DNA of 64,000 nucleotides, from positions 46,620-110,619 of the forward strand of contig CAZFRO010000006.1 in the NCBI GenBank assembly GCA_964521425.1. The letters are read 5' to 3'. The notes below the pieces were generated by a model, which saw only the letters and a list, made by a program, of their open reading frames with translations, ran no database searches and was not told the origin of the DNA. Position 1 is the stretch's first letter. Every line of letters begins with the position of its first letter. The translations under genes and the position numbers were made by a program. Source of the DNA: an uncultured bacterium. GTDB taxonomy: Bacteria; Joyebacterota; Joyebacteria; Joyebacterales; Joyebacteraceae. Below, one piece after another: positions 47,650 through 64,000 of the stretch.

Positions 47650-47708
47650 CGCGCGTACCAGTACAGGTGAGGCACAGCTAGCACGCGTACCAGCACGGGT
47701 GAGGTTCG

Positions 47709-48734
47709 GTGGCTCCAATGGAACAGACAGCGACACTGCACGACAGAGAACTCAACGCCGGCTACCGCATGAAGCGGACAGCGGGCATGGCCGGCGTCTA
47801 TGCGGCCTTGGCCGTGGGTGTTGTGCTCATGATCGTGCCGTTCTGGTGGATGGTCTCGACCTCTCTCAAGTCTCCGCTTGAGATTCTCGAGTTCCCTCCC
47901 ACGTGGATTCCGACGGGGCACTTCGCCGAACTGGCGGATGGAACGTGGGAAGAGGTCTACATCGTTTCGAAGGACAAGATTGCGGGAACCGTGGACGTCA
48001 GGTCGCTGGACGGAGGTATCGAGCGCACGGTCGCCTCGAGCGCGGTCGCGGACAGGATCCGTTTCCGCTTCAGAAACTACGCGGAGGCATGGAGTCAGGC
48101 TCCGTTCGCCAGATACTATTTCAATACGATTCTGATCACCATCTTCGTGGTCATGGGCGTCCTCGTGACATCGTCGCTCGCGGCCTACGCCTTCGCGCGC
48201 ATGAAGTTCTGGGGGAGGGACAACATCTTCCTCATCTTCCTGTCGATGATGATGGTTCCGCAGCCTGTCTATCTGGTTCCGTCCTACATCATTCTCGTGA
48301 AGCTCGGGTGGATTGACACCTATCAGGCTCTGATAGTCCCGTGGTTCGCACACATCTTCAGCATTTTTCTCCTGAGACAGCACTTCAAGACGATACCAAA
48401 CGATCTCTACGATGCCGCGATCATCGACGGCTGCAGCAGGTTCGCATTTCTCTGGCGGGTCATGCTTCCTCTGTCCAAGGCAGTACTCGTCGCGGTTGTC
48501 ATCTTCACGGTCGTGGGAACGTGGAACTCGTTCCTGTGGCCTCTCGTGATGACGAACACGCCGGAAGTGCGACCGCTCCAGGTCGGTCTCGCCCGGTTCT
48601 CACAGGAGCAGGGGACAAGTCACGAACTAATGATGGCGGCGGCTGCCTTCTCGGTTGCACCGCTCATCATCGCCTACTTCTTCGCACAGAAGCAGATAAT
48701 CCAGAGCATGGCCACTTCGGGCTTGAAGGGCTAG
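47709..48734 (+). CDS. carbohydrate ABC transporter permease (MalG/UgpE-like)
   Basis: DAAIIDGCS EAA-loop. MKRTAG at 47769 is an alternative start. Confidence 0.8.
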   Translation: MAPMEQTATLHDRELNAGYRMKRTAGMAGVYAALAVGVVLMIVPFWWMVSTSLKSPLEILEFPPTWIPTGHFAELADGTWEEVYIVSKDKIAGTVDVRSLDGGIERTVASSAVADRIRFRFRNYAEAWSQAPFARYYFNTILITIFVVMGVLVTSSLAAYAFARMKFWGRDNIFLIFLSMMMVPQPVYLVPSYIILVKLGWIDTYQALIVPWFAHIFSIFLLRQHFKTIPNDLYDAAIIDGCSRFAFLWRVMLPLSKAVLVAVVIFTVVGTWNSFLWPLVMTNTPEVRPLQVGLARFSQEQGTSHELMMAAAAFSVAPLIIAYFFAQKQIIQSMATSGLKG

Positions 48735-48785
48735 CAGGAGCATGGCCACGTCGAGCCCTGAGGATCAGTTGATGGAGGAATCGGA

Positions 48786-50081
48786 ATGAAGCACAAGCTC
48801 AAGAAGCACTGGCTGCTGCGGGTTCTCCTCGTGACATCCGTTCTCGCCGTAACGCTTGCCGGGTGTGGTGGTGGGGACGAGGGTGGAGCCGACGGCGTGA
48901 CGCGTCTGCAGTTCTGGCATGCCATGGGGGGGCCGCTCGGTGACGCGCTCGATGTGCTCGTCGCGGAGTTCAACGAGAGTCACAGTGACATCGAGATCCA
49001 GTCGGTGAGCATGGGGCGCTACCAGGCGCTCTCGCAGAAGATCATGGCGTCCGTCGCAGCCGGCGAGCCGCCGGATCTGGCGCAGGTCTACGAGGCGTGG
49101 ACCGAGAACCTGATAGAGAACGGCAGTGCCGCGCCCCTGTCGCCGTATGTCAACGGACCGAACGGGCTTTCGCAGGAAGAACTCGACGACTTCATCCCGG
49201 GCATGATCGCGAACAGCACGTGGGAAGGTGAGATCTACTCGTTCCCCTTCAACAAGAGCGTCCGGGGCCTCTATTGGAACAAGGACGCGTTCGCAGAGGT
49301 GGGTCTCACACGCGCTCCCACGAACTGGGACGAGTATCTCGAGTACGCCAAGAAGCTCACACGCGACACCGACGGGGACGACGAGATCGATCAGTGGGGG
49401 ACGGCGGGGCAGATAAGCGCGTGGATGTTCGAGAACCTGCTCGTCCAGAACGGCGGGAGTATTCTCACAGCCGACGGCACGCGCGCTGCGTTCGATAGCC
49501 CCGAGGGAATCGAAGCCCTCGAGTTCATGGTGGAGCTTCTCACTGAGTACGGGAAGGTGACGTCCGGGTACGAGTACCAGAATGATTTCCAGGCGGGCAA
49601 GATAGGCATGATAGAAGGCTCCACCGTCTCGCTCGCGTTCATGGAGGGCAAATACACGTTCGACATGGCGCTCGCGCCGCTTCCGGAGAATAAGAAGAAG
49701 GCGTCCTTCTTCGCGGGCACCAACGTCGTCATCTTCGCGGATTCATGCGACGAGAACAAGACGGCTGCGTGGGAATTCGTGAAGTGGTTCACGAGTCCCG
49801 AGATCACGGCGCGCTGGGCCGCGATGACCGGGTACGCTCCGGTCAGACAGAGTGCAATGAACCTGCCCGTCATGCAGGAGAGGTTCGCGGAGGTCGAGGG
49901 ACTCGACCGCGTGTTCACGCAGCTCGACTACGCCGCGTTTGAGCCACGGTCCGCGGCCTGGTATGCGGGACGAAAGTACCTTGAGGAGAGCGGTGTCGAG
50001 GCCGCCCTCAGAAAGCAGATGATTCCGAGTGATGCACTGGCAGCCGCAGCAGTGGCCGTCAATGCCGAGCTTGCGCAATAG
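48786..50081 (+). CDS. extracellular solute-binding lipoprotein, family 1 (sugar ABC)
   Basis: Lipobox LAGCGGG. GGAGGAA SD. Typical SBP1 length and motifs. Confidence 0.8.
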   Translation: MKHKLKKHWLLRVLLVTSVLAVTLAGCGGGDEGGADGVTRLQFWHAMGGPLGDALDVLVAEFNESHSDIEIQSVSMGRYQALSQKIMASVAAGEPPDLAQVYEAWTENLIENGSAAPLSPYVNGPNGLSQEELDDFIPGMIANSTWEGEIYSFPFNKSVRGLYWNKDAFAEVGLTRAPTNWDEYLEYAKKLTRDTDGDDEIDQWGTAGQISAWMFENLLVQNGGSILTADGTRAAFDSPEGIEALEFMVELLTEYGKVTSGYEYQNDFQAGKIGMIEGSTVSLAFMEGKYTFDMALAPLPENKKKASFFAGTNVVIFADSCDENKTAAWEFVKWFTSPEITARWAAMTGYAPVRQSAMNLPVMQERFAEVEGLDRVFTQLDYAAFEPRSAAWYAGRKYLEESGVEAALRKQMIPSDALAAAAVAVNAELAQ

Positions 50082-50129: not shown

Positions 50130-51275
50130 ATGACACGACGCGGGAAGCACGGAGCGGTAGCCACGCTGGCACTGGCTGCACTGCTTGTTGCCGGCGTAGT
50201 CGCGGCTCAGGAGTTGACGATCTGCGAGGTGCAGCAGTACGACGCGAGCGGCTACTCACCATACAACGGGGAGACGGTGGCCGTCAGGGGGATTGTTACA
50301 TTCCCGCCGGGGTATGTCGTTCCCGGTGAACCGCCTGGACACACCTCGATGTACATCCAGTCGGGCGGCTGCGGAATCAACGTCTTCTGCTTCGATGAGC
50401 CGGCACTGGTTGACGTGGCACTCGGCGACAGCGTCAGAGTGACCGGTCAGGTCGAGGAGTATGTCGGCTCGAGCGCAGGAGCCACCACCGAGATATTGTG
50501 TGACAGCGGGGCGGACATCGAACTCCTTGTGGAGGGCGCGAGATTCGTAGAGCCGCTTGAACTCACGCTGTCGGATGGAATGATCGGGGAGGATCTCGAG
50601 GGCGTGCTTGTGAGAACTGTCGGAGTCATAACACTCCACCTGGGCTTCAAGATCGAACTCGAGGAACTGGACGACCCCGTTATCTACCAGGGTTACAACG
50701 ACAGCGTGGACTTCAACGTCTATGAAGTTGGGGACACGCTCGATGTGGCAGGAGTCGTCCTTCAGTACGACAGAAACCCACCGTACCTGGAGGGATTCGA
50801 GATCGTGCCACGCTTCCAGAGCGATATGAAGCACTTCGTGCCGTTTCCTCCGCCGTACGTCGGGTTCTCCTCCGATGTGCTGATCTCATTCCGTCAGATC
50901 ACGGCTGTCGACACAGCGGGCATGGCCGTGCTCGGAGACGAGAAGGCGCCTGTCTTCTACCCCGATATCGGGGAGATTCTGCCGATCTACTACAAGGCGC
51001 CTGCCGAGAGCCGCACCATTATGAAGCTCTACGATCTACAGGGCAGACTTGTACGCACGCTTCTGGATGAGGACTACGACGGTTACTCGGGTCTTCCAAA
51101 CCACTACGAGCAGCTCTTCCCGTACACCATGGGTGTGCGAGGCTGGGACGGGCGGGACGATCTCAGGCGGCTGGCTCCGGCCGGCACCTACATCTGTCGC
51201 TTTGAGGCGACGAAGCCGGGCGGGTCGACCGAAGTGGTCACGGCGCCTCTCGTCGTCGGAGCCAGGCTCAAGTGA
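50130..51275 (+). CDS. secreted OB-fold/beta-sandwich module protein (ExeM/NucH N-terminal-like, no nuclease domain) with T9SS CTD
   Basis: AAGGAGGAA SD. Signal peptide. ICEVQQYDASGYSPYNGETVAVRGIVT...MYIQSGGCGINVF...VRVTGQVEEYVGSSAGATTEI. LQYDRNPPYLEGFEIVPRFQSDM. CTD: IYYKAPAESRTIMKLYDLQGRLVRTLLDE...WDGRDDLRRLAPAGTYICRFE. Confidence 0.7.
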   Translation: MTRRGKHGAVATLALAALLVAGVVAAQELTICEVQQYDASGYSPYNGETVAVRGIVTFPPGYVVPGEPPGHTSMYIQSGGCGINVFCFDEPALVDVALGDSVRVTGQVEEYVGSSAGATTEILCDSGADIELLVEGARFVEPLELTLSDGMIGEDLEGVLVRTVGVITLHLGFKIELEELDDPVIYQGYNDSVDFNVYEVGDTLDVAGVVLQYDRNPPYLEGFEIVPRFQSDMKHFVPFPPPYVGFSSDVLISFRQITAVDTAGMAVLGDEKAPVFYPDIGEILPIYYKAPAESRTIMKLYDLQGRLVRTLLDEDYDGYSGLPNHYEQLFPYTMGVRGWDGRDDLRRLAPAGTYICRFEATKPGGSTEVVTAPLVVGARLK

Positions 51276-51313
51276 TTCACCTGCCCGGAGATGAAGCTGA
51301 AAGGACTGAGCGT

Positions 51314-54300
51314 ATGAAGCTGAAGAGGGTAATTCTACTCGGGGTTCTCACTCTACTCATCGCGACCGCGGCATCGGCGGATGTGATAAACATCGCTGAT
51401 GTCAACGCTGACGATGAGGATGGGCACCCTATTCTGATGAACGATATCGTGACCATCGAGGGTGTTGTGACGGCGGGAACGGGGGCGTTTGCAGACACGA
51501 ACGAGATCTACGTCCAGGACGCCACGGGCGGAGTCCTCGTGATGCAGGTTCTCACGGCCGCCCCGTTCGTCGCTCCCGGTGACAGCGTCCGTGTGACGGG
51601 CAGTGTGGGCGTTGTCTACTTCAAGCGGACAATGCTGAGAGTGGGGGGAGGTGTCGCGGGATCACGAATCGACGTCCTGAGCACCGGTAATCCCGTGCCT
51701 GCACCGCTTGAACTCACTGCCCGTGACCTCTCTACATCGGGCGAGGATTACGAAGGAACATACGCGGTCGTGCGCGATGTATCACTTCTCCATCCGGGCG
51801 ACTGGCCGAGCACCGAGTACACGGACTTCCGCGAGCTTGACATCACGGATGCCGACACATCGTGTTGGCTCTGGGTGCACCCGTTCACCGATGTCGACGG
51901 CTCCTCGGCCCCTCTCGGGCAGTTCGATGTCTATGGCTTCGTCTCTCCTGACCCCACGCAGCCGAACAACGACGGCTACGGGCTCATTCCGAAAGCCAGG
52001 ATGGATATCCGCTCGGCAGGCTCGGGAGCAGGCTTCGCCACCGCGTCCCCGGAGTGGGTGTTCACGGGTGACGAGCAGGACATCGAGATCTCGCTTGTCG
52101 GAGAGTGCGACGCCCTCAGCCGGATAAGCGTGGCGATTCCGGGCGGATGGACCTTCTCGGGAGATGCGGCAGACATCGGTCTCGACGGCGCCGCGTTCCT
52201 GACGGCGGAGGTCGTGGCGCATCAGGACAGCACAAACACAACACTCATCACCATCCGGGGTGCGAATCTTATCTACGGTTCACCCGGTGACATCACCATC
52301 GAGAGCATGACCGTGCCCTCAACGGCCGGCGACTACGAATTCGTGGTCGGCACGTCCGTCCCGGGTGAGGATCCTGTCGTCATCGGCGATGGGGCCTGGG
52401 TGCACGTGGCAACGACAGGTGAGCCGGGTGATGTCGTCATCAACGAACTCTATCCAAACAGCGATGCCACAGGCGACATCGCGGAGTTCATCGAGCTTCA
52501 CAACCCATCCCGTGGAACGGTCGACATCTCCGGGTGGGTCCTGACCGATGTGGATGACTCGGGAACCTGCGGTGGCTCCAATCTCTGGGAGTTCCCGGTA
52601 GGTTCGGAGATCCCTGACGACGGCTACATTGTCGTTGCGCGTCACGCGATCGGCTACTACGTGCGCTTCGGTGTTGACCCCGATTACGAGCTTGTCGACG
52701 ATGACTACGCGGTCGATCCCGACGACGGTGGGGTTCCGAATCTCATGCTCATGTCACCGGTCGACGGCAACAGCCAGACGAGTCAGGAAATCATCCTGAT
52801 GGGCGGGGACGATGAGAACGGTGCGGTGCTGGAGGGCAAGCGCGTCTACGAGGCCGTCTATCTCTACACGGACAGGCTCAAGACCGACCTCATCGATGCC
52901 GTCGAGTACCGTGACCCGATCTACCTGGATGAGGATTTCTGCACAGGGGAGCCGGAACTCGGCGGTGATGATGACGCATTTGTTCCAGGCTTCGTTCCCC
53001 TGGACTACACGCTCGGTAGAGACGCGGTCTCGACTGACACGAACGCGAGTTCGACCGACCTCATCCTCTCATCAACACCGACTCCGGGTGACGTGAACGT
53101 TCCGACGGATACCGCACCGCCCGGCCTGGCCATGGTGACTGCTGCGGGGGATCGCTTTGTCAAGGTCGAGTTCTCGGAGCGGGTGGACGAGGATGATGCG
53201 ACGAACATCTCGAACTACGCGCTCAATGGGGGGCGTGAGATCTTGCGCGCACTGTTCTCCAGGGAAGAGCGGACGGTGTTTCTCTACGCGTCCGTCGACA
53301 GCACTGGGTTTCCGTACGAGCTTGACGTCAGCGGCGTCGCCGACGTCGCGGGGAATCAGATGATGACCGACTCCGCATCGTTCATAGGTTACTATCAGCA
53401 CTCAACACCGCTGTCCGAGATACAGGCCTACGACGAATACGGTCTCTCCCCTCTTGAGGGAGAGAGGGTCATCGCTCTTGGATTCGTCTCGGTTCCCCCC
53501 GGTGTCTTTCAGGTGGGCAAGACGAGTTTCTACATCCAGGATCTGGACGGGTACGGCATAAATATCTTCACGTCAGACCTTCTCCCTGATCCGCCCTCCA
53601 CGGGTGACCTCATCGAGATCGTCGGGGAGGTCGAGGAGTACATCTCCGGTGGGAACGGTGCGACAACGGAGATAATCGGAAGCGACGATGTTCCATTGAC
53701 CCTGATGGTACACGCGCGGGAACTCCACGCCATAGAGCCCGCCGTCATGCGCACCGGAGACATTGCGGACGAGGCGCTTGAGGGAACGCTCATAACGACG
53801 TCGGGTGTCATCATGAGTCTGGAGGGATTCGCCATCTACATCGATGACGGTTCCGGTTCCATCCAGGCCTATCAGAACTTCACCGACCTTGATTTCTCGA
53901 AGTACGCTTTCGGTGACAGCATCGGCGTGACCGGTGTTCTCCTCCAGTACGACTACTCGTCTCCGTTCTTCGGCGGGTATGAGCTGGCTCCGCGCTATGA
54001 GAGCGACATGGAGATCATGGAGGCGCACTTCGTTGCCGAAGCGGCAGTCACGGCGACGGCGCGAGTGCTCGACATCGACGAGGATGAAGTCATCGAGATA
54101 TCATACAACGGACCGCAGGCGAGCCACATCGCGGTCAGGGTCTTCGATCTTCAGGGCCGGTCGGTGGCGACGCTCTACGATGGTTGGTGCCTGGGACCAC
54201 AGAGAGCGACGTGGGACGGGAAGGATGACAGAGGTAAGGACCTGCCACCTGGCGTCTATGTCTGTCAGGTTCAGGCTAGAGCAAGAACCGGCGAGGCCGC

Positions 54301-54346
54301 GGGGAATGCGGCTGTGCCGATAGTTATCGGAATGAAGCTCCAATAG
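51314..54346 (+). CDS. secreted multi-domain T9SS cargo: OB-like module, Ig-like, lamin-tail domain (LTD), Ig-like, second OB-like module, CTD
   Basis: Signal peptide MKLKRVILLGVLTLLIATAASA. LTD signature VVINELYPNSDATGDIAEFIELHNPSRGTVDISGWVLTD. OB-like modules paralogous to gene 50130 (LLQYDYSSPFFGGYELAPRYESDME). CTD: RVFDLQGRSVATLYDG...WDGKDDRGKDLPPGVYVCQVQ. Confidence 0.8.
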   Translation: MKLKRVILLGVLTLLIATAASADVINIADVNADDEDGHPILMNDIVTIEGVVTAGTGAFADTNEIYVQDATGGVLVMQVLTAAPFVAPGDSVRVTGSVGVVYFKRTMLRVGGGVAGSRIDVLSTGNPVPAPLELTARDLSTSGEDYEGTYAVVRDVSLLHPGDWPSTEYTDFRELDITDADTSCWLWVHPFTDVDGSSAPLGQFDVYGFVSPDPTQPNNDGYGLIPKARMDIRSAGSGAGFATASPEWVFTGDEQDIEISLVGECDALSRISVAIPGGWTFSGDAADIGLDGAAFLTAEVVAHQDSTNTTLITIRGANLIYGSPGDITIESMTVPSTAGDYEFVVGTSVPGEDPVVIGDGAWVHVATTGEPGDVVINELYPNSDATGDIAEFIELHNPSRGTVDISGWVLTDVDDSGTCGGSNLWEFPVGSEIPDDGYIVVARHAIGYYVRFGVDPDYELVDDDYAVDPDDGGVPNLMLMSPVDGNSQTSQEIILMGGDDENGAVLEGKRVYEAVYLYTDRLKTDLIDAVEYRDPIYLDEDFCTGEPELGGDDDAFVPGFVPLDYTLGRDAVSTDTNASSTDLILSSTPTPGDVNVPTDTAPPGLAMVTAAGDRFVKVEFSERVDEDDATNISNYALNGGREILRALFSREERTVFLYASVDSTGFPYELDVSGVADVAGNQMMTDSASFIGYYQHSTPLSEIQAYDEYGLSPLEGERVIALGFVSVPPGVFQVGKTSFYIQDLDGYGINIFTSDLLPDPPSTGDLIEIVGEVEEYISGGNGATTEIIGSDDVPLTLMVHARELHAIEPAVMRTGDIADEALEGTLITTSGVIMSLEGFAIYIDDGSGSIQAYQNFTDLDFSKYAFGDSIGVTGVLLQYDYSSPFFGGYELAPRYESDMEIMEAHFVAEAAVTATARVLDIDEDEVIEISYNGPQASHIAVRVFDLQGRSVATLYDGWCLGPQRATWDGKDDRGKDLPPGVYVCQVQARARTGEAAGNAAVPIVIGMKLQ

Positions 54347-54398
54347 AGGATTCCATTACGAGGGTCTTTGATCGAAAGCGATCCAGAAGGAGGCAAGG

Positions 54399-55280
54399 GT
54401 GAAAGGGATACGAATTGCAACCGCCGCGGCCGTCTTGGTCTGCCTCGTGCTTCCCGGCGTGGCCGGGGCCGCCGGCGTCTTTGACAACCTGATTCTCTCA
54501 CCGCGTGCGCGAGCCATGGGTGGGGCGTTTGTGGCGCTCTCAGATGATGAGACCGCGATCTTCACGAACCCCGCGGCTCTCGCGATGCAGGATGAGATCG
54601 GGATCTACTCGTCGTACGTGGATCTCTACGGCTACGATTTCCTGAAGCTCGGCTCCGGAGCCGTGACTATTCCCACTGACGTGGGAACCTTCGGAATCGG
54701 GGCCCGCTACTTCTCCACCGAATACGACGGCAGCGAACTCGAGAGCGAGTACTCGTTCGTGGTCGGCCAGGGCGTGATGCTGATGGAGGATGTGCATTCC
54801 TCCCTCGCGGTCGGATACGGACTGAGCCTCTACGGACTGAGTTTCCCGACCGAGTCCGTGGGAGGCGTGGAACTCGGGTCCGCCAACACCTTCGGCGTCG
54901 ACATCGGTGTGATAGGTACACTGAGAGGACGCACGCGGTTCGGCTTCTTCGCGAAGAACATCAACAACCCGAAGCTCGGCGACCCGGACGCGAAGGATCT
55001 CCCGCAGTGGTTCACGGCGGGCGTCTGCTACAGTCCGTACGGAGGTGTTCAGACTTGTCTCGAGATCCAGAAGCAGACCACGGAGGATCTGAGGGCCTGC
55101 TTCGGTCTTGAGTTCGAGATCAGCGACTACCTGACACTCCGCGGAGGCATCCAGAATCAGCCGAACAGGCTCTCGTTCGGGTTCGGCACCGGATGGAAGA
55201 TGGTCAAGCTCGACTACAGCTACACATCACACGAGACACTGCCGGGAAGTCACGTCTATGGCCTCGGCATCAAGTTCTAG
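54399..55280 (+). CDS. FadL/PorV/PorQ-superfamily outer-membrane beta-barrel
   Basis: GAAGGAGG sits before GTG 54399. Signal peptide. N-terminal plug-like motif SPRARAMGGAFVALSDDETAIFTNPAALA. Alternating amphipathic strands. C-terminal GLGIKF, an aromatic terminus. Confidence 0.6.
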   Translation: MKGIRIATAAAVLVCLVLPGVAGAAGVFDNLILSPRARAMGGAFVALSDDETAIFTNPAALAMQDEIGIYSSYVDLYGYDFLKLGSGAVTIPTDVGTFGIGARYFSTEYDGSELESEYSFVVGQGVMLMEDVHSSLAVGYGLSLYGLSFPTESVGGVELGSANTFGVDIGVIGTLRGRTRFGFFAKNINNPKLGDPDAKDLPQWFTAGVCYSPYGGVQTCLEIQKQTTEDLRACFGLEFEISDYLTLRGGIQNQPNRLSFGFGTGWKMVKLDYSYTSHETLPGSHVYGLGIKF

Positions 55281-55313
55281 TTTGCGGCCGATCAAGGGAC
55301 GGAGGGAGGTACG

Positions 55314-57791
55314 ATGAAACGACTCAGAGCCATGGGGTTTGTGGCGGTGTTGGTCTGTCTCATTCTGGCCGCTAATGCCCCATGTGTTCGCGCCGAGGAG
55401 CAGCTCGATCTGAATCGCGCAACACTCGAGGAGATACGGGCACTGCCCATCTCCGAGGACGTTGTCGAGGTGATCTGGCAGTACAGGGAGTACACCTCCT
55501 ATTTCAGGAGCGTCTACGACCTGAGAACACTCCCTGGCGTGGCAATAGAGGATTTTCTGCGGATCAAACCGCTTGTGAAGATCGTTCCGGTGCTGATCGA
55601 GGATGAGGAGCTTCTGCGAATCAACGAGATCTACTACCGGATCAGACAGTGGGAATCGGAGGAGGGTGGTGGTGAGGCGCTCGTGGATCACTGGATCGAT
55701 CTTGCGAAGGATCCCGTGAACATCAACACGGCGAGCTACAACGAGATCGCTAATCTCCAGAGCGTGTCGCCTCCGGACGCGGCGGCCATCTTCAAGAACA
55801 TGCGGAAGAACCGCGTGGAGCGGAGATCGCAGCTGAGAAACATTCCGGGGCTGACGTACTGGGGCTACTACAACGTGCGGAATTTCGTGCGTTACGATGA
55901 GCCCGCTGATGATGCCCCGTTTAGGGGAAGCTACCAGTTCCGGATCTACGACACTCCGTCTATCTTCGATACGGAGGAGCTTCTCAAGGAGGACCGGAAC
56001 TTCGCCGACGGAGGGTACGATTCCTGGTGGGATCGTCTCAATCTGGACGGCGCGGGTCCCATCTACCAGCACAAGTTCCGCGGAAGATGGGGGCAGGACA
56101 TTAACGCGGGGGCGCTGGCGCACAAGGGGTTCGGTGATGACGAACTTACCGCGTTCAAGTTCCACGCGACGATACGGGACAAGTCGATCGGTCCGGTGAC
56201 TTTCGACAACATAGTCATTGGCAACTACGCCCTCGCCTTTGGGCAGGGCCTGGTGATGCAGAACACCGACTACTTCAAGCCGAGGAACTCCGGCTACGGG
56301 TGGGACAAGAGGTACATGGGTGTTCTGGGTGATATCTCGCCGACACAGCAGTATCAGCTCAACGGTGTCGCCACGGAGATGACGCTCGGCAACGTGAAGA
56401 GCGTGGTCTTCTACTCTGATGACTGGAAGGATGCCGTTCTCAATCCCGACGGCACCATCAACCAGTACATCATCATGTCTCCTCGTATCAGCAACGACGA
56501 CCTGGCCGCGGCCGGCATGCGCGACATGAAGGACGTCGTTCACGAACAGACGGTAGGCGCGAATATCAAGTACGGCTTCGCGCCCGGTACGTGGATCGGC
56601 GTGAGCGCTTACGAGAGTCGCTACAACAAGTACTGGAAGTCGGGTTACGATCCGAACGGCACGATGGACGTCGCCTGGATCGTTCCGGAGGACAACGAGG
56701 ACAAACTTGTTGCCGCCGACGCCGAGTACTTCTCAAGTTACACAAGTCCGGGCAAGTTCAGACGCGTCTTCGGTGCGGAGTTCCAGTACGTCCTGGACAA
56801 CGTCGCCTTTGCCGGCGAGTACGCCTCGCTCGACAAGGACGGGGAGATCTTTGACCTTGAGGAGGATGCAAACGCGTTCGTCGTCAATGCCTACGCGTCC
56901 TACAGCAACCTGAGCTTCCTCGCTCTCTACCGGGACTACGATGTGGATTTCGACAATCCTTACAGTCGTGCGTTCTCCGAGTACAAGCGGTACAAGGGGA
57001 CGATACTCGAGGATCAGTACTATCTGTCGGATCCGATCTACGGTCTTCTCTACGTGAATTCCGTGGCGCCGCAGGCGGAACGGGGGCTGTACATCAACTC
57101 TCGATACAGGTTCTCCGACCGTCTGACTCCGTCGATCGAGTACGATGTCTGGGAGCGCAAGGCCGACGGTGCCGACTACTCCCGCCTGGTCGTCAAGCTC
57201 AGATTTCAGCCCATCTACAACATCGTGATGAATCTGAGACAGAAGTGGCAGGGACGTCTGGGTGAGAACACGCTGACACCTCAAGCCTACGAGCAGGTCG
57301 AGACCCGGTTCAGACTCGAGTACAGGCTCTCGAAGTACGATGAAGTCGAGTTCATGCTGTCGAGATCATGGATCGAGTGGCCGCCGAGGCCGCGGCTCTC
57401 GGGCAATCCGGAGGCTGACGGCGAGTATCCGGACATCGGATCGGCCGCGGTCCCGTCGTATGCGATTGGGGCCGCCGTCACCCACAACTTCAGTGACTGG
57501 TTGAAGGTGACGGGATCGGTTCTCTACTACGACGGCTTCATCTGGCTCTTCGAGGATGGGTCGTTCACGGTCATTGACGACCACGCCTTCAGGTACTGGA
57601 TATCGATCTCGGATCGTATCTCCGATCACCTGTCACTCAGGTTCAGGTGGACCAACAACCAGTCGTTCCCCCTGAGCTATGTGGACGCGAGGGAATACGG
57701 GGAGAACCCGCCGGGTGATCCGGAGCCGAACGGGTTCTACGTCAGGGACGATAATGCAGGGTACCGAATCCAGCTTGACTACTCGTGGTAG
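55314..57791 (+). CDS. outer-membrane beta-barrel protein with two N-terminal ComEA-type helix-hairpin-helix DNA-binding domains
   Basis: Signal peptide. HhH 1: DLNRATLEEIRALPISEDVVEVIWQYRE...LRTLPGVAIEDF. HhH 2: VNINTASYNEIANLQSVSPPDAAAIFKNMRKNRV...LRNIPGLT. A Tyr/Gly-rich region of about 650 aa has beta-strand periodicity and ends LDYSW. Confidence 0.7.
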   Translation: MKRLRAMGFVAVLVCLILAANAPCVRAEEQLDLNRATLEEIRALPISEDVVEVIWQYREYTSYFRSVYDLRTLPGVAIEDFLRIKPLVKIVPVLIEDEELLRINEIYYRIRQWESEEGGGEALVDHWIDLAKDPVNINTASYNEIANLQSVSPPDAAAIFKNMRKNRVERRSQLRNIPGLTYWGYYNVRNFVRYDEPADDAPFRGSYQFRIYDTPSIFDTEELLKEDRNFADGGYDSWWDRLNLDGAGPIYQHKFRGRWGQDINAGALAHKGFGDDELTAFKFHATIRDKSIGPVTFDNIVIGNYALAFGQGLVMQNTDYFKPRNSGYGWDKRYMGVLGDISPTQQYQLNGVATEMTLGNVKSVVFYSDDWKDAVLNPDGTINQYIIMSPRISNDDLAAAGMRDMKDVVHEQTVGANIKYGFAPGTWIGVSAYESRYNKYWKSGYDPNGTMDVAWIVPEDNEDKLVAADAEYFSSYTSPGKFRRVFGAEFQYVLDNVAFAGEYASLDKDGEIFDLEEDANAFVVNAYASYSNLSFLALYRDYDVDFDNPYSRAFSEYKRYKGTILEDQYYLSDPIYGLLYVNSVAPQAERGLYINSRYRFSDRLTPSIEYDVWERKADGADYSRLVVKLRFQPIYNIVMNLRQKWQGRLGENTLTPQAYEQVETRFRLEYRLSKYDEVEFMLSRSWIEWPPRPRLSGNPEADGEYPDIGSAAVPSYAIGAAVTHNFSDWLKVTGSVLYYDGFIWLFEDGSFTVIDDHAFRYWISISDRISDHLSLRFRWTNNQSFPLSYVDAREYGENPPGDPEPNGFYVRDDNAGYRIQLDYSW

Positions 57792-57859
57792 CCGAGGCGG
57801 GGGCAATGGATATGAATCGAGAGCAAAGTCAGGGAATCAATAGATTGGGGAGGCAGAAG

Positions 57860-59086
57860 ATGCGACGAGGATTCACGGTCGTGATGGCTCTCCTCGCTGT
57901 CGCGAGTCTGTGCGGGAGCGCCGCGGCGTTCTCGTACGCAGAGTGGCACTACGGGGAGTTCGTACCAGCCGGCGACGCCAGGTCGCTGGCGCTTGGTGGG
58001 GCCGGACTCGCGTCCGCAGACGGGGCGCGTGGTGCGGGACTGAACCCCGCGCTGGTTGCGAAGACTGTCGGGCTCGAGCTTGCTATGAGCGCGATGCTGC
58101 TCACTGCGGAGGAGTCAAGAGAGGCGCCTCTCTACGACAGTTTTGAGGGCATCATCGGTTACAACACTTACGCATTCAACACGACGATGTACGATCGCTA
58201 CGTCGGGACGATCTCGTGGAAGCCGTCGGGCGACTACGACTGGGCTCCGGCTGTGGCGATCGGATACCACCCACGGCTGGACATGTCCTACAGCTACCAC
58301 GTCCAGTACAGGGACTCCGACACGCAGGCTGAGCCGATGGACAAGATTCTCTACGACTACTGGAACGAGGGCGAGGGCGGCGTCAACGCCTACACCGTGA
58401 CCCTGGCCCACGAGGTCGTACCGGAAGTCTACCTGGGGCTCGGCGTCGACTTCCTGAGAGGGCAGGCGGACGCAGAGGAGCGGTGGGTCTATCCGGAGTA
58501 CTCCGAGGAGACCGATGTAGACGGCTGGTTCGAATTGGATGGTTTCTCGGGGACCCAATTCACCGTCGGGCTTCTGGTCGAGAAGCTGCATCGTGTGGAC
58601 GTGGCCGTCGTATATCGCTCGAGCTTCGAACTGGCCGCCGACTACAGCGGTGAGAGCACGGAGGACGAGGCGGACGACGGGAACCTCACGTATTCGTATC
58701 CCTCAGCGATCGGTGTGGGGTTCGAGTACCACCCGCGCAACGAGATAATGACCACCGTGAGTCTGGATATCGAATACACGGAGTGGTCGAAGTTTGAGGA
58801 CAGCCTCACTGACGATCTGGATCTCAGCGACACGATCGAGTACCGCGTGGGCGTGGAGCATCAGTTCTTCAACACGACACAGGCCCGGTTTGGTTTCCTC
58901 TACCAGCCTTCCTACATGGATGACGAGACCACGAGAGCTGCATTCAGCATCGGTCTCGGGTTGGACCTCGTTGGCGTGAGGTTGGATGTAGGGGGGCAGC
59001 TTGGCGTGAGGGAGTACGATATCGAAGACGGTCGCATCCGTGAGACGACGACCACGGCGATGGTGAGTCTTTCGCACCGATTCTAG
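57860..59086 (+). CDS. FadL/PorV-like outer-membrane beta-barrel (paralogous fold to 54399)
   Basis: GGGGAGG sits before ATG 57860. Signal peptide. Motif ARSLALGGAGLASADGARGAGLNPA. Ends SLSHRF. Confidence 0.55.
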   Translation: MRRGFTVVMALLAVASLCGSAAAFSYAEWHYGEFVPAGDARSLALGGAGLASADGARGAGLNPALVAKTVGLELAMSAMLLTAEESREAPLYDSFEGIIGYNTYAFNTTMYDRYVGTISWKPSGDYDWAPAVAIGYHPRLDMSYSYHVQYRDSDTQAEPMDKILYDYWNEGEGGVNAYTVTLAHEVVPEVYLGLGVDFLRGQADAEERWVYPEYSEETDVDGWFELDGFSGTQFTVGLLVEKLHRVDVAVVYRSSFELAADYSGESTEDEADDGNLTYSYPSAIGVGFEYHPRNEIMTTVSLDIEYTEWSKFEDSLTDDLDLSDTIEYRVGVEHQFFNTTQARFGFLYQPSYMDDETTRAAFSIGLGLDLVGVRLDVGGQLGVREYDIEDGRIRETTTTAMVSLSHRF

Positions 59087-59118
59087 CCGCCCGGTCTCCG
59101 GGCGAGGAGAAGTAGACA

Positions 59119-60873
59119 ATGATAATTCGACGAAGGCTCACGCTGGTACTTGCGGTTGCCATAGCTGTCCTTGCTGTGGCGCCGGCGTGGGGCGCTTCAG
59201 ACACCGATGGATTGTTCCGCCTGTCTGTCGTGTTCACGAACGACATACACGGTGGGATCGACCCGTCGGGAGCTACCTTTATGAACAGGGAGTTCCCGCC
59301 GCCTCTGGGTGGAGCCGCCTCGGCTGTCACCTACATTGAGATGTTGCGGGAGAGGGCGAGGGAAGAGGGTGGAGCTGTCCTGCTGATTGATCAGGGCGAC
59401 ATCTTTCAGGGTACTCCGGTCGGCAACTTCCGGAAGGGTGAGTCCGTCATCGAGTACTTCAATCATGTCGGATTCGATCTCTGGACGATCGGCAACCACG
59501 ATTTCGATGAGGGAGCCGAGAACCTCTGGCACCTGATCGAGATGTCAGAAATGCCGGTACTCTCGGCGAACCTGGTGTGGGAGGAGACCGGAGAACCGGT
59601 CGAGCACGTCGAGCCCTACATCATCAAGGACTACGGCGGCGTCAAGGTGGCCATCGTAGGACTGACGACGACGGACACTCCCAAGATGGCTTTTCCCGCT
59701 CATGTTGCGGGCGTGAAGTTCCTGTCTTCCATCGAGACGGCGGAGCGCTACGTCAAGGAAGTCAGAGAGGCAGGGGCGGACATCGTCATCTTCTCCGGGC
59801 ATATGGGGCTTCCGTACGATCCCATCTCCGGCTATGCGAAGCTCATCGAAGAAGAGCAGGAGCGGGACGAGGAGGCCGTGCGCGAGCCGCTTGAGGAGAA
59901 GAAGTGGGGTGCGCATGCGATGGAGATCGCCCACAAGGTGCCCGGCATCGACGCCTTCTTCGCCGGTCATATCCATAAGGGATTTGATGAGCCGTGGGAG
60001 GAGCCGTCCACACACACCATCATCTTCCAGACCTACGGGCGGGGCTCCGGAGTTGGCAACGTCGATCTCCTGATCGACCCCGTGACGAAGACGCTGGTCG
60101 GATATGAACTTCCGTCGTACCGTGGTGACCTCATCACGCTCTTCGAGGATCAGTGGTGGCCGAATGAGGAGACCACTGAGATGATCACCGCTCTGGTCGA
60201 TGAGGCGGAAGTCGGGATGGACCGCATCATTGGCTACACCGATATCGATCTTTCGCGGGGAGGAGATGGTGAGACCAGAATGGGGAACCTGGTCTGCAGC
60301 GCCATGCTCGAAGAAGTTGATGCTGATTTCGCGTTCACGAACCTCGGTGGTATCCGGGACGAGATCCCGACCGGCCCCGTGACGCCGCGCCAGGTCTTCA
60401 AGGTTCTTCCGTTTGGCAACAGCCTCATGGTGTTCGAGATGGACGGGAGGCTCTTGAAGGAAGTAGTCGAGTATCGCGTCAGCGCCGACCACCATGGTGT
60501 CTACATGGCCGGTGGCAGGATCGTCTACAACAAGACACGACCGGACTACGACCGCGTGACCTCCTTCACGATCGGTGGTGAGCCATGGGAGGCGGACCGC
60601 ATCTACCGCGTCGTCACGAGTGACTTCCTTGCGGTGGGCAATGCGGGTCTCTACATGCTTCCCGACATACCTGATGACAAGAAGCGGAGAACCTCGACGA
60701 CGTGTATGGACGCGGCTGTCCACTACATTGAACGTCATACTCCGATAGGACCTCAGCTCGACGGGCGATGGGTGAGGGATGATGAGGCCGAGGTCAGTGC
60801 CGCTCTCATCGCAGCCATGGAGGGCATGGAGCCCTTAGCACCCCCCGTGGAGGAGGCTAGCGGGCCCTACTAG
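59119..60873 (+). CDS. secreted bifunctional metallophosphatase / 5'-nucleotidase (UshA family)
   Basis: GAGGAGAAG SD. Signal peptide. VVFTNDIHGG, DQGDIFQGTPVGNF and GNHDFDEG metallophosphatase motifs. C-terminal 5'-nucleotidase domain (FTNLGGIRDEIPTGPVT, FGNSL). Confidence 0.85.
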   Translation: MIIRRRLTLVLAVAIAVLAVAPAWGASDTDGLFRLSVVFTNDIHGGIDPSGATFMNREFPPPLGGAASAVTYIEMLRERAREEGGAVLLIDQGDIFQGTPVGNFRKGESVIEYFNHVGFDLWTIGNHDFDEGAENLWHLIEMSEMPVLSANLVWEETGEPVEHVEPYIIKDYGGVKVAIVGLTTTDTPKMAFPAHVAGVKFLSSIETAERYVKEVREAGADIVIFSGHMGLPYDPISGYAKLIEEEQERDEEAVREPLEEKKWGAHAMEIAHKVPGIDAFFAGHIHKGFDEPWEEPSTHTIIFQTYGRGSGVGNVDLLIDPVTKTLVGYELPSYRGDLITLFEDQWWPNEETTEMITALVDEAEVGMDRIIGYTDIDLSRGGDGETRMGNLVCSAMLEEVDADFAFTNLGGIRDEIPTGPVTPRQVFKVLPFGNSLMVFEMDGRLLKEVVEYRVSADHHGVYMAGGRIVYNKTRPDYDRVTSFTIGGEPWEADRIYRVVTSDFLAVGNAGLYMLPDIPDDKKRRTSTTCMDAAVHYIERHTPIGPQLDGRWVRDDEAEVSAALIAAMEGMEPLAPPVEEASGPY

Positions 60874-60911
60874 CAGCCCTAAGAGGTTCAGTAGCAGCAG
60901 ATTGTGAGATG

Positions 60912-60937
60912 CCCGCCTGGCCGGACGGCCGGGCGGG
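60912..60937 (+). terminator. GC-rich hairpin downstream of 5'-nucleotidase gene (CCCGCC..CCGG ACGG CCGG GCGGG), no U-tract
   Basis: Inverted repeat read directly from the sequence, about 40 nt after the stop. Confidence 0.3.
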
Positions 60938-61017
60938 TGTCGCGCAACACGGCGCCAATGCCCTGCGGGCCGGGTCGCGATGCACACATGTACGGCCCTG
61001 TGTTCTGTGGGTAGCGC

Positions 61018-61046
61018 TGGACAAGTGATGCTCTGTGTGGTATAAT
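61018..61046 (+). promoter_or_regulatory. strong sigma70-like promoter: TGGACA - 17 nt - TGgTATAAT (extended -10)
   Basis: Perfect TATAAT at 61041-61046 with an upstream TG. The -35 TGGACA lies at 61018-61023. Followed by a leader of about 160 nt before ATG 61211. Confidence 0.5.
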
Positions 61047-61210
61047 CTAACGTCGGGAAAAATCACCCTTCCCGAGGGTGGGGTTGTTGCGCCTTCGGGG
61101 CGGAGTGAGGTTGTTTATCCAAAGGGATGACAGGTGGAGGGAGTGACCTGGGAATCGCTTCCCCGATAGATTTGTTGGCAACGGTGGGAGAACACCAAGG
61201 AGGTCGTGTG

Positions 61211-64000
61211 ATGATGAAGCTGTCTGTTCTGGTCGCAGCCGTGCTCGTTCTGGTATTCGGCGCGGCCATGGCTAATCCTTCAGGTACCGATGTTGTTATC
61301 AATGAGATCTACCCGGACGCCAACGAGTACTATGACGGCGCCGAGTTCATTGAGCTCTACAATCCGACCGGAAGTTCGATTGACATCGGCGGATTTGTTC
61401 TCTGCGGAGTCGAGTACGACCAGCTCTGCGGAGGCGAAGACCGCTGGCAGTTCCCGTTTGGGACGACCATCGCCGCCGGGGGCTACATCACGGTCGCGAA
61501 GGACGGGGCCGACGGTGACGACGGATTCTACGAGGAGTTCGGGATCTACCCCGACTTCGAGATGTTCGATGCGTCGTTTGAGTTCGATAACGACAGCATG
61601 TTTGTCCCAAACATGAATCTCCTGGACCCCGATCCTGCGACCGGCTACAGCGACGAGATACAGCTGGTCGGCGGCAAGGGCTACGGCACCATGTGCGGCG
61701 GCTACAGCAATGGTGACGTTGTGTATCTGTACACGACAGGATCTCTGATAACTCTGGTCGACCTTGTCGAGTACGCCGATATGGAGGTCTGCACCGAGGA
61801 TCCGTGTTTCGGCGATGACGGTATCCCGGACAATGCGTTCGACGAGATCCCGTACCTCGGCAACACACTTGGTCGTGACGCCTCCAGCACGGACACCGAT
61901 AGCAGCATCACGGACTGGCAGATGCAGGCTCCCACGCCCGGCGTTCAGAACATTCAGAACACGCCGCCGTGGATTCGTTCGGTCATGTACTCGCCGATCC
62001 CACCGATGGACACGGACGCCGTCGACATCACGGCTGTCGTGACCGATGATGGCAGCGTAGATTCAGTCATGGTCTACTACCGTGTGGACGCGGGGCCGTG
62101 GGGCACAGTTGCCGCATCGGGAGTGGACACACTCTACACGGGTACCATTGCGGCCCAGGCGAACGGATCCCAGGTCCAGTACTTCGTGCGTGCCGTCGAC
62201 AATCATGGCGCCGGCATCAACTACCCGTCCGAGGGTTTCTCTGATCCGTACGCCTACTCGGTCGGCTTCACGACCATCTACGATGTGCAGTTCGTACCTT
62301 TTGGTGGCGATGCGTCGCCTCTCGAAGGCCAGACTGTCAACGTGACGGGTATTGTGACTGCAGCGAAGGGCGAGTTCTCCGATTCATTCTGCATGATCCA
62401 CGAAGGCAATACGTACTTCGAGGGCATCAAGATCTACGCCACGTACAACTACGACGGCGAGATCAATGAGGGTGACGAGATCACGGTCTCCGGTTTTGTG
62501 ACCGAGTACTACGGTGAGACCGAGATCTATGTTCCTTTCAATGAGGCAGTCACGATTCTCTCGACGGGCAATGCGAACTACGGCTATGCCGCAGTCACAA
62601 CGGCCGACATCGATCCTGATGACACCGGCTCCGAGGCGTATGAAGGTCAGCTCATCAGCGTCAGCAACGTGACGGTGACGGCCGAGCCCGACGGCTACGG
62701 CCAGTGGTACATCGAGGATGCCTCGGCAGTGGGTGCCATGGTCGATGACTACGGGTACTACAGCTACACCCCGCAGCTCTTTGATGTGCTCGACGAGGTT
62801 CGTGGCGTACTGATGTACAGCTACGACCAGTTCAAGATCGAGCCGCGGTACGACGAAGATATCGTTGGTCCGCCGAGGATCGCGGACGTTCGCTACTCGC
62901 CGATACCGCCGGTGGCCGGCAATGTCACGATTACTGCCGACATCACCGACAACCAGGGCATCAGTTCGGCAACGCTGAACTACGCTCTTTCGGCGGCAGG
63001 TCCCTTCAGCCAGACGCCGATGACGACATCGCGCGATATCTACTCCGCGACGATCGGTCCGTACGTCGATGGCAACAGGATCTACTACTTCATCGAGGCC
63101 AGCGACGGCGTGATGGATGCCAGGAAGCCGACTGCGGGCTCGTACAGCCTCTACATCGGCATGGTCGACATCTTCGACATCCAGTTTGTCGCCGCCCCTG
63201 GTGTGGATGACACGTCACCGCTCGACACGCTTGCGGTCAACACGACCGGTATCGTGACGGCGGAGCCGGGTGTCTACAGCGACTACTATTTCACGATCCA
63301 GACCGAGGACGTGGCACGCGGTGCGTGGCAGGGAATCAAGGTCTACGATCGCACCGGTTCGGCGAGCTTCGAGCGCGGCGATGAGATCATCGTCTGTGGC
63401 GAGGTTCAGGAGAACTGGGGCGAGACTGAGGTCTCCCTGCACTTCGTCGAGGGAGCAGTCCTCGTCGAGTCGCGCGGCAGCATGCCGGATGCAGTCTCCA
63501 TCGCTACGGCCGATCTCCAGACCAAGACCACCGGCGAGCAGTACGAGGGCGTCTACGTTCACGCCGAGGACGCTACGGTCATGGTTGCGGACATGGGCTA
63601 CGGCGAATGGGCCATCACAAACGGGGCCGCTGGTGATACGTGCCGCGTCGATGATGACGCTCCGTACACCTACGAGCCGGTAGAGGGCGACAACGTCTTC
63701 GTTCTTGGTACGGTCATGTTCTCGTATGGCAACTACAAGCTCGAGCCGCGCGGCGATGACGATATCGCCGTCAATCCGGTCGGTGTCGAAGACGGCATCG
63801 TCGGTGCCAAGCTCGATCTCGGCCAGAACATGCCGAACCCGTTCAACCCGAAGACGACCATCGCCTTCACACTGCCTGAGCCGACGGATGTCACGATCGA
63901 GGTCTACGATGTGACCGGTCGCAGGATCGTCACACTCATGAGCGACCGCCTCGAAGCGGGTGGTCACTTCGTCGAGTGGTCGGGACGTGGTGACAACGGT
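61211..64000 (+). CDS. secreted multi-domain T9SS cargo (3' end beyond window): lamin-tail domain, FN3/Ig-like modules, two OB-like modules, CTD beginning at about 63815
   Basis: AAGGAGG sits before ATG 61211. Signal peptide MMKLSVLVAAVLVLVFGAAMA. LTD: VVINEIYPDANEYYDGAEFIELYNPTGSSIDIGGFVLCG. OB-like: IYDVQFVPFGG...TVNVTGIVTA and IFDIQFVAAPG...NTTGIVTA. CTD start: NMPNPFNPKTTIAFTL...VTIEVYDVTGRRIVTL. Confidence 0.8.
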   Translation, partial: MMKLSVLVAAVLVLVFGAAMANPSGTDVVINEIYPDANEYYDGAEFIELYNPTGSSIDIGGFVLCGVEYDQLCGGEDRWQFPFGTTIAAGGYITVAKDGADGDDGFYEEFGIYPDFEMFDASFEFDNDSMFVPNMNLLDPDPATGYSDEIQLVGGKGYGTMCGGYSNGDVVYLYTTGSLITLVDLVEYADMEVCTEDPCFGDDGIPDNAFDEIPYLGNTLGRDASSTDTDSSITDWQMQAPTPGVQNIQNTPPWIRSVMYSPIPPMDTDAVDITAVVTDDGSVDSVMVYYRVDAGPWGTVAASGVDTLYTGTIAAQANGSQVQYFVRAVDNHGAGINYPSEGFSDPYAYSVGFTTIYDVQFVPFGGDASPLEGQTVNVTGIVTAAKGEFSDSFCMIHEGNTYFEGIKIYATYNYDGEINEGDEITVSGFVTEYYGETEIYVPFNEAVTILSTGNANYGYAAVTTADIDPDDTGSEAYEGQLISVSNVTVTAEPDGYGQWYIEDASAVGAMVDDYGYYSYTPQLFDVLDEVRGVLMYSYDQFKIEPRYDEDIVGPPRIADVRYSPIPPVAGNVTITADITDNQGISSATLNYALSAAGPFSQTPMTTSRDIYSATIGPYVDGNRIYYFIEASDGVMDARKPTAGSYSLYIGMVDIFDIQFVAAPGVDDTSPLDTLAVNTTGIVTAEPGVYSDYYFTIQTEDVARGAWQGIKVYDRTGSASFERGDEIIVCGEVQENWGETEVSLHFVEGAVLVESRGSMPDAVSIATADLQTKTTGEQYEGVYVHAEDATVMVADMGYGEWAITNGAAGDTCRVDDDAPYTYEPVEGDNVFVLGTVMFSYGNYKLEPRGDDDIAVNPVGVEDGIVGAKLDLGQNMPNPFNPKTTIAFTLPEPTDVTIEVYDVTGRRIVTLMSDRLEAGGHFVEWSGRGDNG

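Follow-up and report, generated by a model that had tools for sequence, protein, structure and literature searches.

A stretch of 64,000 nucleotides from an uncultured bacterium of the Joyebacterota (GenBank contig CAZFRO010000006.1; this whole stretch is called the window, and coordinates count from its first letter) carries at positions 50130-64000 a series of genes for secreted and outer-membrane proteins, designated A to G. The region is considered, with a probability of roughly 0.55, to be the core of a surface apparatus that scavenges extracellular nucleic acid and is conserved across the FCB (Fibrobacterota-Chlorobiota-Bacteroidota) superphylum. An earlier note made from the sequence alone had begun the locus at 50130; the unit reaches further upstream, to about 43–45 kb, and takes in a Ugp-like ABC importer and a metallo-β-lactamase (MBL) gene; a purple acid phosphatase (PAP)-like esterase (43188-45227) is tentatively included in it. 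From 42.9 kb to the end of the window every gene lies on the plus strand and the gaps are very short: the PAP-like gene ends 5 nt before the open reading frame (ORF) that contains the MBL gene, whose own start codon, at 45308, lies 80 nt beyond that end, and the MBL lipoprotein gene lies 3.5 kb upstream of protein A within the same tightly packed array. The features of the locus are as follows (LTD, lamin-tail domain; CTD, C-terminal domain; T9SS, type IX secretion system).

43188-45227, + strand: secreted PAP-like metallophosphoesterase (Pfam Metallophos and Pur_ac_phosph_N; signal peptide MNRLSRTALTVLIATLSVMG)
45308-46603, + strand: MBL lipoprotein with ComEC-type domain, 431 aa (TIGR00361, lipobox LAGC, HSHEDH)
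46675-50081, + strand: CUT1-family UgpA/UgpE/UgpB-like ABC importer (BPD_transp_1 twice, SBP_bac_1/8)
50130-51275, + strand: protein A, 381 aa (signal peptide, one tandem-OB module at aa 27-236, variant T9SS-type CTD)
51314-54346, + strand: protein B, 1010 aa (signal peptide, OB aa 21-225, LTD aa 370-444, Ig-like, OB aa 691-905, variant CTD)
54399-55280, + strand: protein C, 293 aa, small outer-membrane barrel of the FadL/PorV/PorQ family
55314-57791, + strand: protein D, 825 aa (signal peptide, HhH aa 28-89 and 133-193, predicted barrel aa ~200-825)
57860-59086, + strand: protein E, 408 aa, FadL-family outer-membrane barrel (Toluene_X)
59119-60873, + strand: protein F, 584 aa, UshA-like 5'-nucleotidase with a type I signal peptide
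61018-61046, + strand: σ70-like promoter match (TGGACA-17-TATAAT with TG (extended -10), 11/12 consensus)
61211 to ~84 nt past base 64000, + strand: protein G, 957 aa (LTD aa 23-185, two Ig-like, OB aa 353-555 and 651-865, type A CTD)

The full length of G (957 aa) was read from metagenome contigs of about 69-70 kb with identical DNA (ENA ERZ23498658, JGI 3300009378). Among named genomes, the best matches are MAGs (metagenome-assembled genomes) of Candidatus Eisenbacteria.

Conservation of the gene array

Relatives of protein D are encoded in 508 species genomes (profile scan, one genome per species), and the best 80 of these 508 belong to metagenome-assembled genomes (MAGs) of Eisenbacteria, Zixibacteria, Gemmatimonadota, Ignavibacteria, Krumholzibacteriota, Fibrobacteraceae, KSB1, Calditrichota and Marinimicrobia; in a library of 1.84 billion proteins D is represented by 176 clusters at E ≤ 1e-30. 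The synteny search proposed in the earlier note, made on neighbourhoods fetched with 10-kb flanks (the PAP-like gene falls outside them), shows that the array OB/LTD-CTD protein–C–D–E–F is repeated in MAGs from nine or more FCB phyla, with different flanking genes. C immediately precedes D in 65 of 67 loci, and at least 57 of 69 have E after D; of the 53 loci that reach far enough downstream, 46 encode F. Where full flanks are available, the Ugp-like importer stands beside the cassette in 22 of 36 loci and an MBL orthologue occurs in 17 of 36; in four loci from other phyla (L062, L066, L073 and L083) this orthologue lies between E and F. G-like genes follow F in most loci from Eisenbacteria, Gemmatimonadota and Zixibacteria.

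A B-like protein is encoded ahead of C in 53 loci. Among the proteins scanned, those in this position are without exception of the LTD/OB class and lack a catalytic domain; in ten phylum-diverse loci the matches are to LTD and/or to the OB families PF01336/PF12869, above the gathering cut-off in four. An informative variant is a distant D subfamily (locus L087), in which the order is OB-CTD protein, C-like barrel, D, outer-membrane protein, a PLDc_2 Nuc-like protein (13469-14011, 181 aa, 91 bits), followed by a 282-aa protein without a family match, and a Ugp-like importer. The occurrence of two unrelated nuclease families at the same position, together with the 5'-nucleotidase and the importer, is the strongest argument for a nucleic-acid substrate. 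The earlier note had weighed the possibility that the locus in relatives might accompany glycoside hydrolases rather than nucleotide-processing genes; no glycoside hydrolase occurs among the 25 of 131 families listed (a single one could remain), and the neighbourhoods hold nucleotide-processing genes. In the census of 107 flanking gene clusters from which this list derives, LTD is the sole non-housekeeping family that recurs.

In locus L081 (12541-15498) ksgA, recO and a gene for a class II tRNA synthetase come directly after the HhH barrel gene, and recO recurs in two flanking clusters; this may be chance or may hint at a connection with recombination. Locus L071 (CAZADO010000179.1), labelled 'uncultured Alphaproteobacteria', agrees with L068 (an unclassified MAG) in its LTD-C-D order, in its ORF lengths and almost exactly in its match statistics; its label is probably a binning or labelling error.

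OB modules and lamin-tail domains of A, B and G

The three co-directional secreted proteins described in the earlier note as sharing paralogous OB-like modules contain five such modules, one in A and two each in B and G. The paralogy of these sequences is far above chance: the A module and the C-terminal module of B are 38% identical (E 7e-39), the two modules of G are 37% identical (E 2e-32), and matches between these pairs range from 5e-8 to 1e-5 (C-terminal module of B with G module 1, E 5e-8; A module with the N-terminal module of B, E 2.5e-7). LTDs are likewise found in two of the three proteins, as had been noted, B (48.5 bits) and G (52.3 bits) both exceeding the gathering cut-off of PF00932; B also carries a FlgD_ig match of 23.2 bits in Pfam.

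Both elements had been likened to those of ExeM/NucH-type extracellular nucleases, with the remark that the endonuclease/exonuclease/phosphatase (EEP) catalytic domain of the latter is absent here, and this description holds. Of the 546 positions of the model NF033681 (ExeM/NucH), only positions 1-115 match G (56 bits vs a 300-bit cut-off), PF03372 has no match in A, B or G, and no EEP catalytic domain was found in the 13 proteins scanned from orthologous positions either. Because this domain is missing, A, B and G are not members of the ExeM/NucH/Xds family. The module profile nevertheless matches the N-terminus (residues 3-174) of a solved EEP-domain protein (9sf8_A, E 2.9e-13). The N-terminal module of B matches DUF5689 over about positions 3-203 of 217 (25.4 bits, gathering cut-off 28.6, E 3.8e-5), and among 86 module sequences from related loci PF01336 is found in 36 and DUF5689 in 13 (best E 7.4e-10), which indicates homology of the modules to DUF5689 at subfamily distance.

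The AlphaFold2 model of A (pLDDT 80) consists of two OB folds plus an Ig-like CTD. In Foldseek about 200 columns of it align to HIN-200 domains and to tandem-OB single-stranded DNA-binding proteins, with further matches to RPA and to the OB folds of aminoacyl-tRNA synthetases. Taken together, profile matches and predicted structure identify the module as the OB unit of ExeM/NucH/Xds-type nucleases, related to DUF5689. The earlier note had proposed such modelling and had envisaged that the modules might instead fold as carbohydrate-binding modules; the predicted fold is a nucleic-acid-type OB fold (RPA, HIN) and not that of such a module. Single-sequence searches of the PDB with A, C and E gave nothing useful, matches emerging only with profiles, and a homologue search with the OB-module profile yielded 12 fragments only and no information on architecture.

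Protein D, an HhH-fused barrel

The tandem ComEA-type HhH domains attributed to D are found as two stretches of PF12836 (HHH_3; 51.7 bits, cut-off 27), and the HhH profile matches the HhH pair of EEPD1 (7.6e-14) and ComEA structures (5.4e-7, 8dss_A). In the AlphaFold2 model (pLDDT 80.4, pTM 0.76) two helical HhH domains are followed by 24 long β-strands, the connections of which alternate between turns of 2-5 residues and loops of up to 46 residues. This alternation of short turns and long loops is canonical and would place the N-terminal HhH domains in the periplasm; the earlier note had taken the combination of genes to suggest DNA binding at the cell surface, but by its predicted topology D looks like an import channel with a ComEA-like ratchet rather than a surface binder. 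ComEA itself is a periplasmic DNA receptor and ratchet of competent bacteria (PMC3879209, PMC9747964), the ratchet having been demonstrated for Vibrio cholerae ComEA (PMC3879209). D resembles it in its two HHH_3 domains, which match ComEA structures, and in their predicted periplasmic location; it differs in that ComEA is small and soluble or anchored in the inner membrane, whereas the HhH domains of D are in tandem and fused to a barrel, their first hairpins lack GIG, and no competence genes lie near D.

No Pfam or NCBIfam model covers the barrel, D matching HHH_3 only, and D falls into none of the barrel families described so far. The closest structure is the pore of the PapC usher (PDB 2vqi), with ~10% identity; D has no usher Pfam match, plug or chaperone-binding domains and no pilus genes accompany it, so that the resemblance is one of size only. 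No description of an HhH-fused outer-membrane barrel, or of this cassette in Eisenbacteria, was found in the literature. It is conceivable, at somewhat less than even odds, that D represents a new class of outer-membrane nucleic-acid translocon: a ~24-strand barrel independent of TonB and pili, with a built-in periplasmic ComEA-type ratchet and with T9SS-displayed tandem-OB receptors docked via a dedicated CTD subtype to cognate PorV-like barrels.

C-terminal domains and the barrels C and E

A, B and G all end in T9SS-type CTDs, as proposed, and these are homologous by sequence to each other and to five others, namely those of four further proteins of the window and of an InhA-like peptidase downstream. 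The CTD of G is canonical (PNPFNP, GVYFYKL...KMVLLK; Por_Secre_tail/TIGR04183 22.3 vs a cut-off of 23 for the window-truncated G). The CTDs of A and B have no PNPF and a distinct tail (PIVIGMKLQ in B), yet share homology with canonical CTDs (E 1e-9 to 1e-15). This variant subtype, with an 'AP(I/V)VVGxxL(K/N/D)' tail (for example 'APIVVGMKLQ') and a 'Y(I/V)C(H/R/Q)' strand, lies at 50988-51272 and 54083-54343 in the window and elsewhere occurs in loci L003-L088. Among 53 complete proteins encoded directly upstream of C, 49 have a tail of the form P[ILVM][VIT][VI][GAS]x1-3[LM] and none has PNPF. G-like proteins downstream of F mostly have a canonical CTD. In and beside the window the same division is seen, the variant CTD being found on A and B and the canonical form on G, the InhA-like peptidase and the four proteins at 5371-15447. 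The variant CTD may define a cargo-specific sorting or anchoring class.

Family models and profiles agree with the assignment of C and E as two FadL/PorV-like barrels among the surface genes. C scores 76.8 bits against NF033709 (PorV_fam), under the 90-bit cut-off (PorQ 31 vs 220, PorV 19.7 vs 250), it contains matches to the N-terminal motifs of PorQ and PorV, and the sole match of its profile among solved structures is PorV (6h3i_F, E 2.3e-6). E exceeds the gathering cut-off of Toluene_X (FadL/TodX, PF03349; 30.9 bits, cut-off 29.7), and its profile matches 9hiv_F (8e-19) and also TbuX/TodX, BamG (9n2d_B), PorV and FadL; by family it probably has 14 strands. C and E are themselves homologues (hhalign probability 98.7%, E 2.5e-16). 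An assignment of E as BamG was rejected (64 bits vs a 250-bit cut-off); E may act as a scaffold or as a small-molecule channel.

This superfamily offers precedents: PorQ collects and anchors PorZ (PMC10947112), PorV shuttles CTD cargo (PMC5562754), and BamG, of the FadL family, sits on BamA and keeps the surface lipoprotein BamH in place (PMC12611786). By analogy, C, and perhaps E, would dock the variant-CTD binders beside D; C is encoded beside a CTD protein, as expected for a pair of the PorQ-PorZ kind. Unlike the 14-strand scaffolds PorV, PorQ and BamG (PMC5562754, PMC10947112, PMC12611786), with which they share a superfamily, C and E score under the family cut-offs, C is shorter (293 aa), and both belong to a cargo-specific cassette and not to secretion or β-barrel assembly (BAM) machinery.

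Hydrolases and importers

The earlier note had called the system nuclease-less. This holds for the OB/LTD proteins, which have no catalytic domain, but not for the locus, which encodes the ComEC-type MBL lipoprotein (45308-46603). The latter matches TIGR00361 (ComEC_Rec2) at positions 440-633 of 663 (E 3e-27) and the β-lactamase-like domains of ComEC in the PDB (9ic4_A, 1e-12; also 30bt_A and 9vc6_A), and has a LAGC lipobox and an HSHEDH sequence that conforms to the HxHxDH motif; the polytopic competence channel domain has no match in its 431 aa in Pfam and NCBIfam scans. As the ComEC MBL domain is a metal-dependent nuclease (PMC8579336, PMC12455585, PMC13539106), the lipoprotein is a candidate for the nuclease of the system.

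F has the two-domain architecture (Metallophos and 5_nucleotid_C, 112 bits; UshA model 196.7 bits vs a cut-off of 600) and the signal peptide of the secreted UshA-type 5'-nucleotidase that had been predicted; its release from the cell is not borne out, since it has a type I signal peptide but lacks a CTD, which makes a periplasmic location more likely. The Ugp-like importer is encoded as a pair of permeases plus a binding protein of lipoprotein type; an ATPase gene does not accompany them, and the importer's scores against NCBIfam UgpA/E/B are far under the equivalog cut-offs (130 bits vs 411). It is a candidate for carrying a breakdown product across the inner membrane, and the PAP-like esterase is a candidate phosphatase or phosphodiesterase.

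Comparison with known systems

The author of the earlier note knew of no described system of this composition. Related systems have in fact been published, in the form of the ddbABCDEF DNA-utilization loci of gut Bacteroidales/Bacteroides (PMC12478041) and the transformation genes RA0C_RS04915/04920 of Riemerella anatipestifer, where RA0C_RS04920 (a DUF5689-type OB protein), its partner barrel and an HhH protein are each essential (PMC8459023); those systems use a TonB-dependent transporter instead. They and the present cassette follow one logic, in which a protein binds DNA at the surface, a transporter carries it over the outer membrane, nucleases cut it and periplasmic enzymes process it; for the cassette these roles are predicted from the genes. 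One component is homologous: DdbD and RA0C_RS04920 belong to DUF5689 and are modelled as HIN-like tandem OB folds, and the model of DdbD was reported to resemble HIN (PMC12478041). The need for an HhH protein is a further likeness to Riemerella. The differences are substantial. In place of the TonB-dependent transporter there is an unrelated ~24-strand barrel with fused HhH domains, flanked by two FadL-family barrels, and TonB-dependent receptor, Plug and CarboxypepD_reg have no match in any gene from 42.9 to 64 kb. Their binders are lipoproteins, whereas the putative binders described here are predicted T9SS cargo (type I signal peptide and CTD); the candidate nucleases are of ComEC-MBL or PLD type; the 5'-nucleotidase and ABC importer belong to the array; and the cassette occurs in non-Bacteroidota FCB phyla. 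It can be regarded as a variant of these recently recognised DNA-utilization/uptake loci, the outer-membrane component of which may be a new class of DNA channel.

The ExeM/NucH/Xds nucleases (LTD + OB + EEP; PMC6085458, PMC6746945) share the LTD and the N-terminal OB module; in the present proteins EEP is absent and the modules are duplicated and joined to T9SS CTDs. The activity of Xds depends on the OB domain but not on the LTD (PMC6746945).

Proposed mechanism and alternatives

From gene content, homologies, predicted folds and synteny we infer that DNA is bound, that the CTDs dock on C or E and that the substrate passes through D, in the following order. The T9SS would export A, B and G, the displayed tandem-OB modules of which (some with LTD) would bind extracellular DNA. 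A and B would stay docked through their CTD subtype on the PorV/PorQ-like C, as PorZ does on PorQ. The polymer or its fragments would then cross the outer membrane via D (~24 strands), the two periplasmic HhH domains holding the incoming strand; the ComEC-type MBL lipoprotein would cut the DNA, perhaps helped by other esterases; periplasmic F would strip phosphate; and the Ugp-like and BMP-family ABC importers would take up the products, which would feed the purine and pyrimidine catabolic genes. The presence of such genes in the window supports a catabolic purpose of the cassette.

Four observations weigh against this picture. Calditrichota-type loci (e.g. L068, L081) keep only the OB protein, C and D and are followed by housekeeping genes, so the catabolic enzymes are not obligatory partners. 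The OB modules have a markedly negative net charge (-28 to -31, pI about 4), which is unusual for DNA binders and argues against simple electrostatic binding of DNA unless cations or local basic patches mediate it; since all predicted extracytoplasmic proteins of the locus (42918-64000) have a pI of 4.0-4.9, the membrane permeases being basic, this acidity may be an organism-wide property. The first hairpin of each HhH domain of D reads 'LPIS...' instead of the 'LPGIG...' of ComEA. Finally, the barrel of D has 26 conserved acidic positions. Arg is the most enriched of its conserved residues (20 of 106 conserved positions vs a 6.2% background, Fisher p 3e-7), and as evidence for a phosphate path this enrichment was downgraded because conserved acidic positions are equally numerous. 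As an observation in its own right, the uniform acidity of the secreted proteins suggests adaptation to a saline habitat.

Among the alternatives, the one that survives best, itself unlikely, is a machine for natural transformation, the counterpart in FCB of the pilus/secretin/ComEA route, in which the OB proteins catch double-stranded DNA, D and its HhH ratchet bring it intact to the periplasm and ComEC acts next, catabolism being secondary; it is compatible with the scavenging explanation. The fusion of ComEA-type HhH domains to a channel fits such a machine, as do the three essential Riemerella components (PMC8459023), the minimal OB-C-D form without nucleotidase or nuclease in Calditrichota-type loci (twice beside recO), and the size of the ~24-strand barrel, which is in the class of PapC, a pore that passes folded pilins. 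However, the operon-like array includes the 5'-nucleotidase in the great majority of loci and often a nuclease and an ABC importer, which would destroy transforming DNA; purine and pyrimidine catabolic genes adjoin the cassette in the window; and no comEC, dprA or comF is present in any fetched neighbourhood.

Distinctly improbable is a role confined to surface display, in which the OB/LTD proteins would be adhesins for extracellular DNA or matrix on PorV-like barrels, D an anchor with structural HhH domains, and no polymer would cross the membrane. The locus-specific CTD subtype beside a PorV/Q-like barrel would suit this role, FadL-family barrels act as anchors in the T9SS and in Bacteroidota BAM (PMC10947112, PMC12611786), the LTD has been discussed as a tethering domain (PMC6746945), and the first HhH hairpins are degenerate; yet adhesion leaves unexplained both the conserved linkage to a 5'-nucleotidase, two unrelated nuclease families at one position and an ABC importer, and the large barrel with conserved charged loops, which is kept at 36-45% identity across phyla. 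Least probable of all is Pho-type phosphate scavenging with RNA alone, a teichoic-acid-like glycerol-phosphate polymer or some other anionic phosphodiester polymer or organophosphate as substrate. The nearest named relatives of the importer, UgpA/E/B (a glycerol-3-phosphate/glycerophosphodiester transporter), the release of phosphate by both PAP-like esterase and 5'-nucleotidase, and the binding of backbones by HhH and OB folds regardless of sequence might speak for it, but the OB module is homologous specifically to DNA-handling proteins (ExeM/NucH-type EEP, DUF5689/DdbD), the hydrolases are of ComEC and Nuc/PLD type, the Ugp scores fall far under the equivalog cut-offs, nucleobase catabolism genes are adjacent, and RNA as substrate would in any case suit the scavenging explanation.

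Significance

Sediments and soils contain a major pool of phosphorus, nitrogen and carbon in the form of extracellular DNA. Passage of DNA across the outer membrane without pilus and secretin is understood only for the recent Bacteroidota TonB-dependent system, and a nucleic-acid-scavenging cassette of the kind proposed here points to a different and widespread solution in at least nine mostly uncultured FCB phyla. If D is a translocon, it would provide a third route for DNA through the Gram-negative outer membrane, beside the secretin with type IV pilus and the DdbC-type TonB-dependent transporter, and one that is widespread in uncultured FCB phyla of sediments and soils. The HhH-fused barrel family, for which neither Pfam nor NCBIfam has a model, is a concrete candidate for the channel; the tie between a CTD subtype and a cargo-specific PorV-like barrel is offered as a rule; and many LTD/OB proteins annotated as 'hypothetical' in metagenomes would acquire a likely role, their carrier lineages being probable DNA degraders.

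Other features of the window

Upstream of the locus, positions 1310-35470 are mostly an island of nucleobase catabolism, followed by a transporter and a housekeeping gene:

1310-3873: PreT/PreA-like dihydropyrimidine dehydrogenase
17058-18527 and 20535-22031: amidohydrolases
22047-23276: pyridoxal phosphate (PLP) enzyme
27371-28927: MobA-like and XdhC genes
29765-30625: FAD-binding (flavoprotein) subunit of Xdh
30736-32806: two YgeW-like carbamoyltransferases
33758-35470: adenine deaminase
36327-40557: BMP-family (nucleoside-type, CUT2) ABC transporter (binding protein, fused double ATPase, permease)
40554-42191: murJ, housekeeping, separating the BMP transporter from the phosphoesterase and MBL genes

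The promoter-like match at 61018-61046 lies 165 nt ahead of G and, as a σ70 consensus match alone, suggests that G is a separate transcription unit; in total, the region holds no more such matches than expected from shuffled sequence. The 337-nt gap ahead of G was considered as an RNA element and rejected, with no Rfam match even at E 1 and a folding z-score of -1.2. Beyond the end of the window, G is followed by the InhA-like M6 metallopeptidase, which has a MAM-like domain and a canonical CTD (L002 19000-21813), and then by a second LTD protein (L002 22007-22478); LTD proteins in this place make up the largest of the recurrent flanking clusters, with 12 loci. A run of four secreted proteins, all bearing canonical FlgD_ig/type A CTDs, is encoded at 5371-15447, one of them a β-helix protein of 1906 aa (NosD/pectate-lyase-like) and three with cohesin-like domains.

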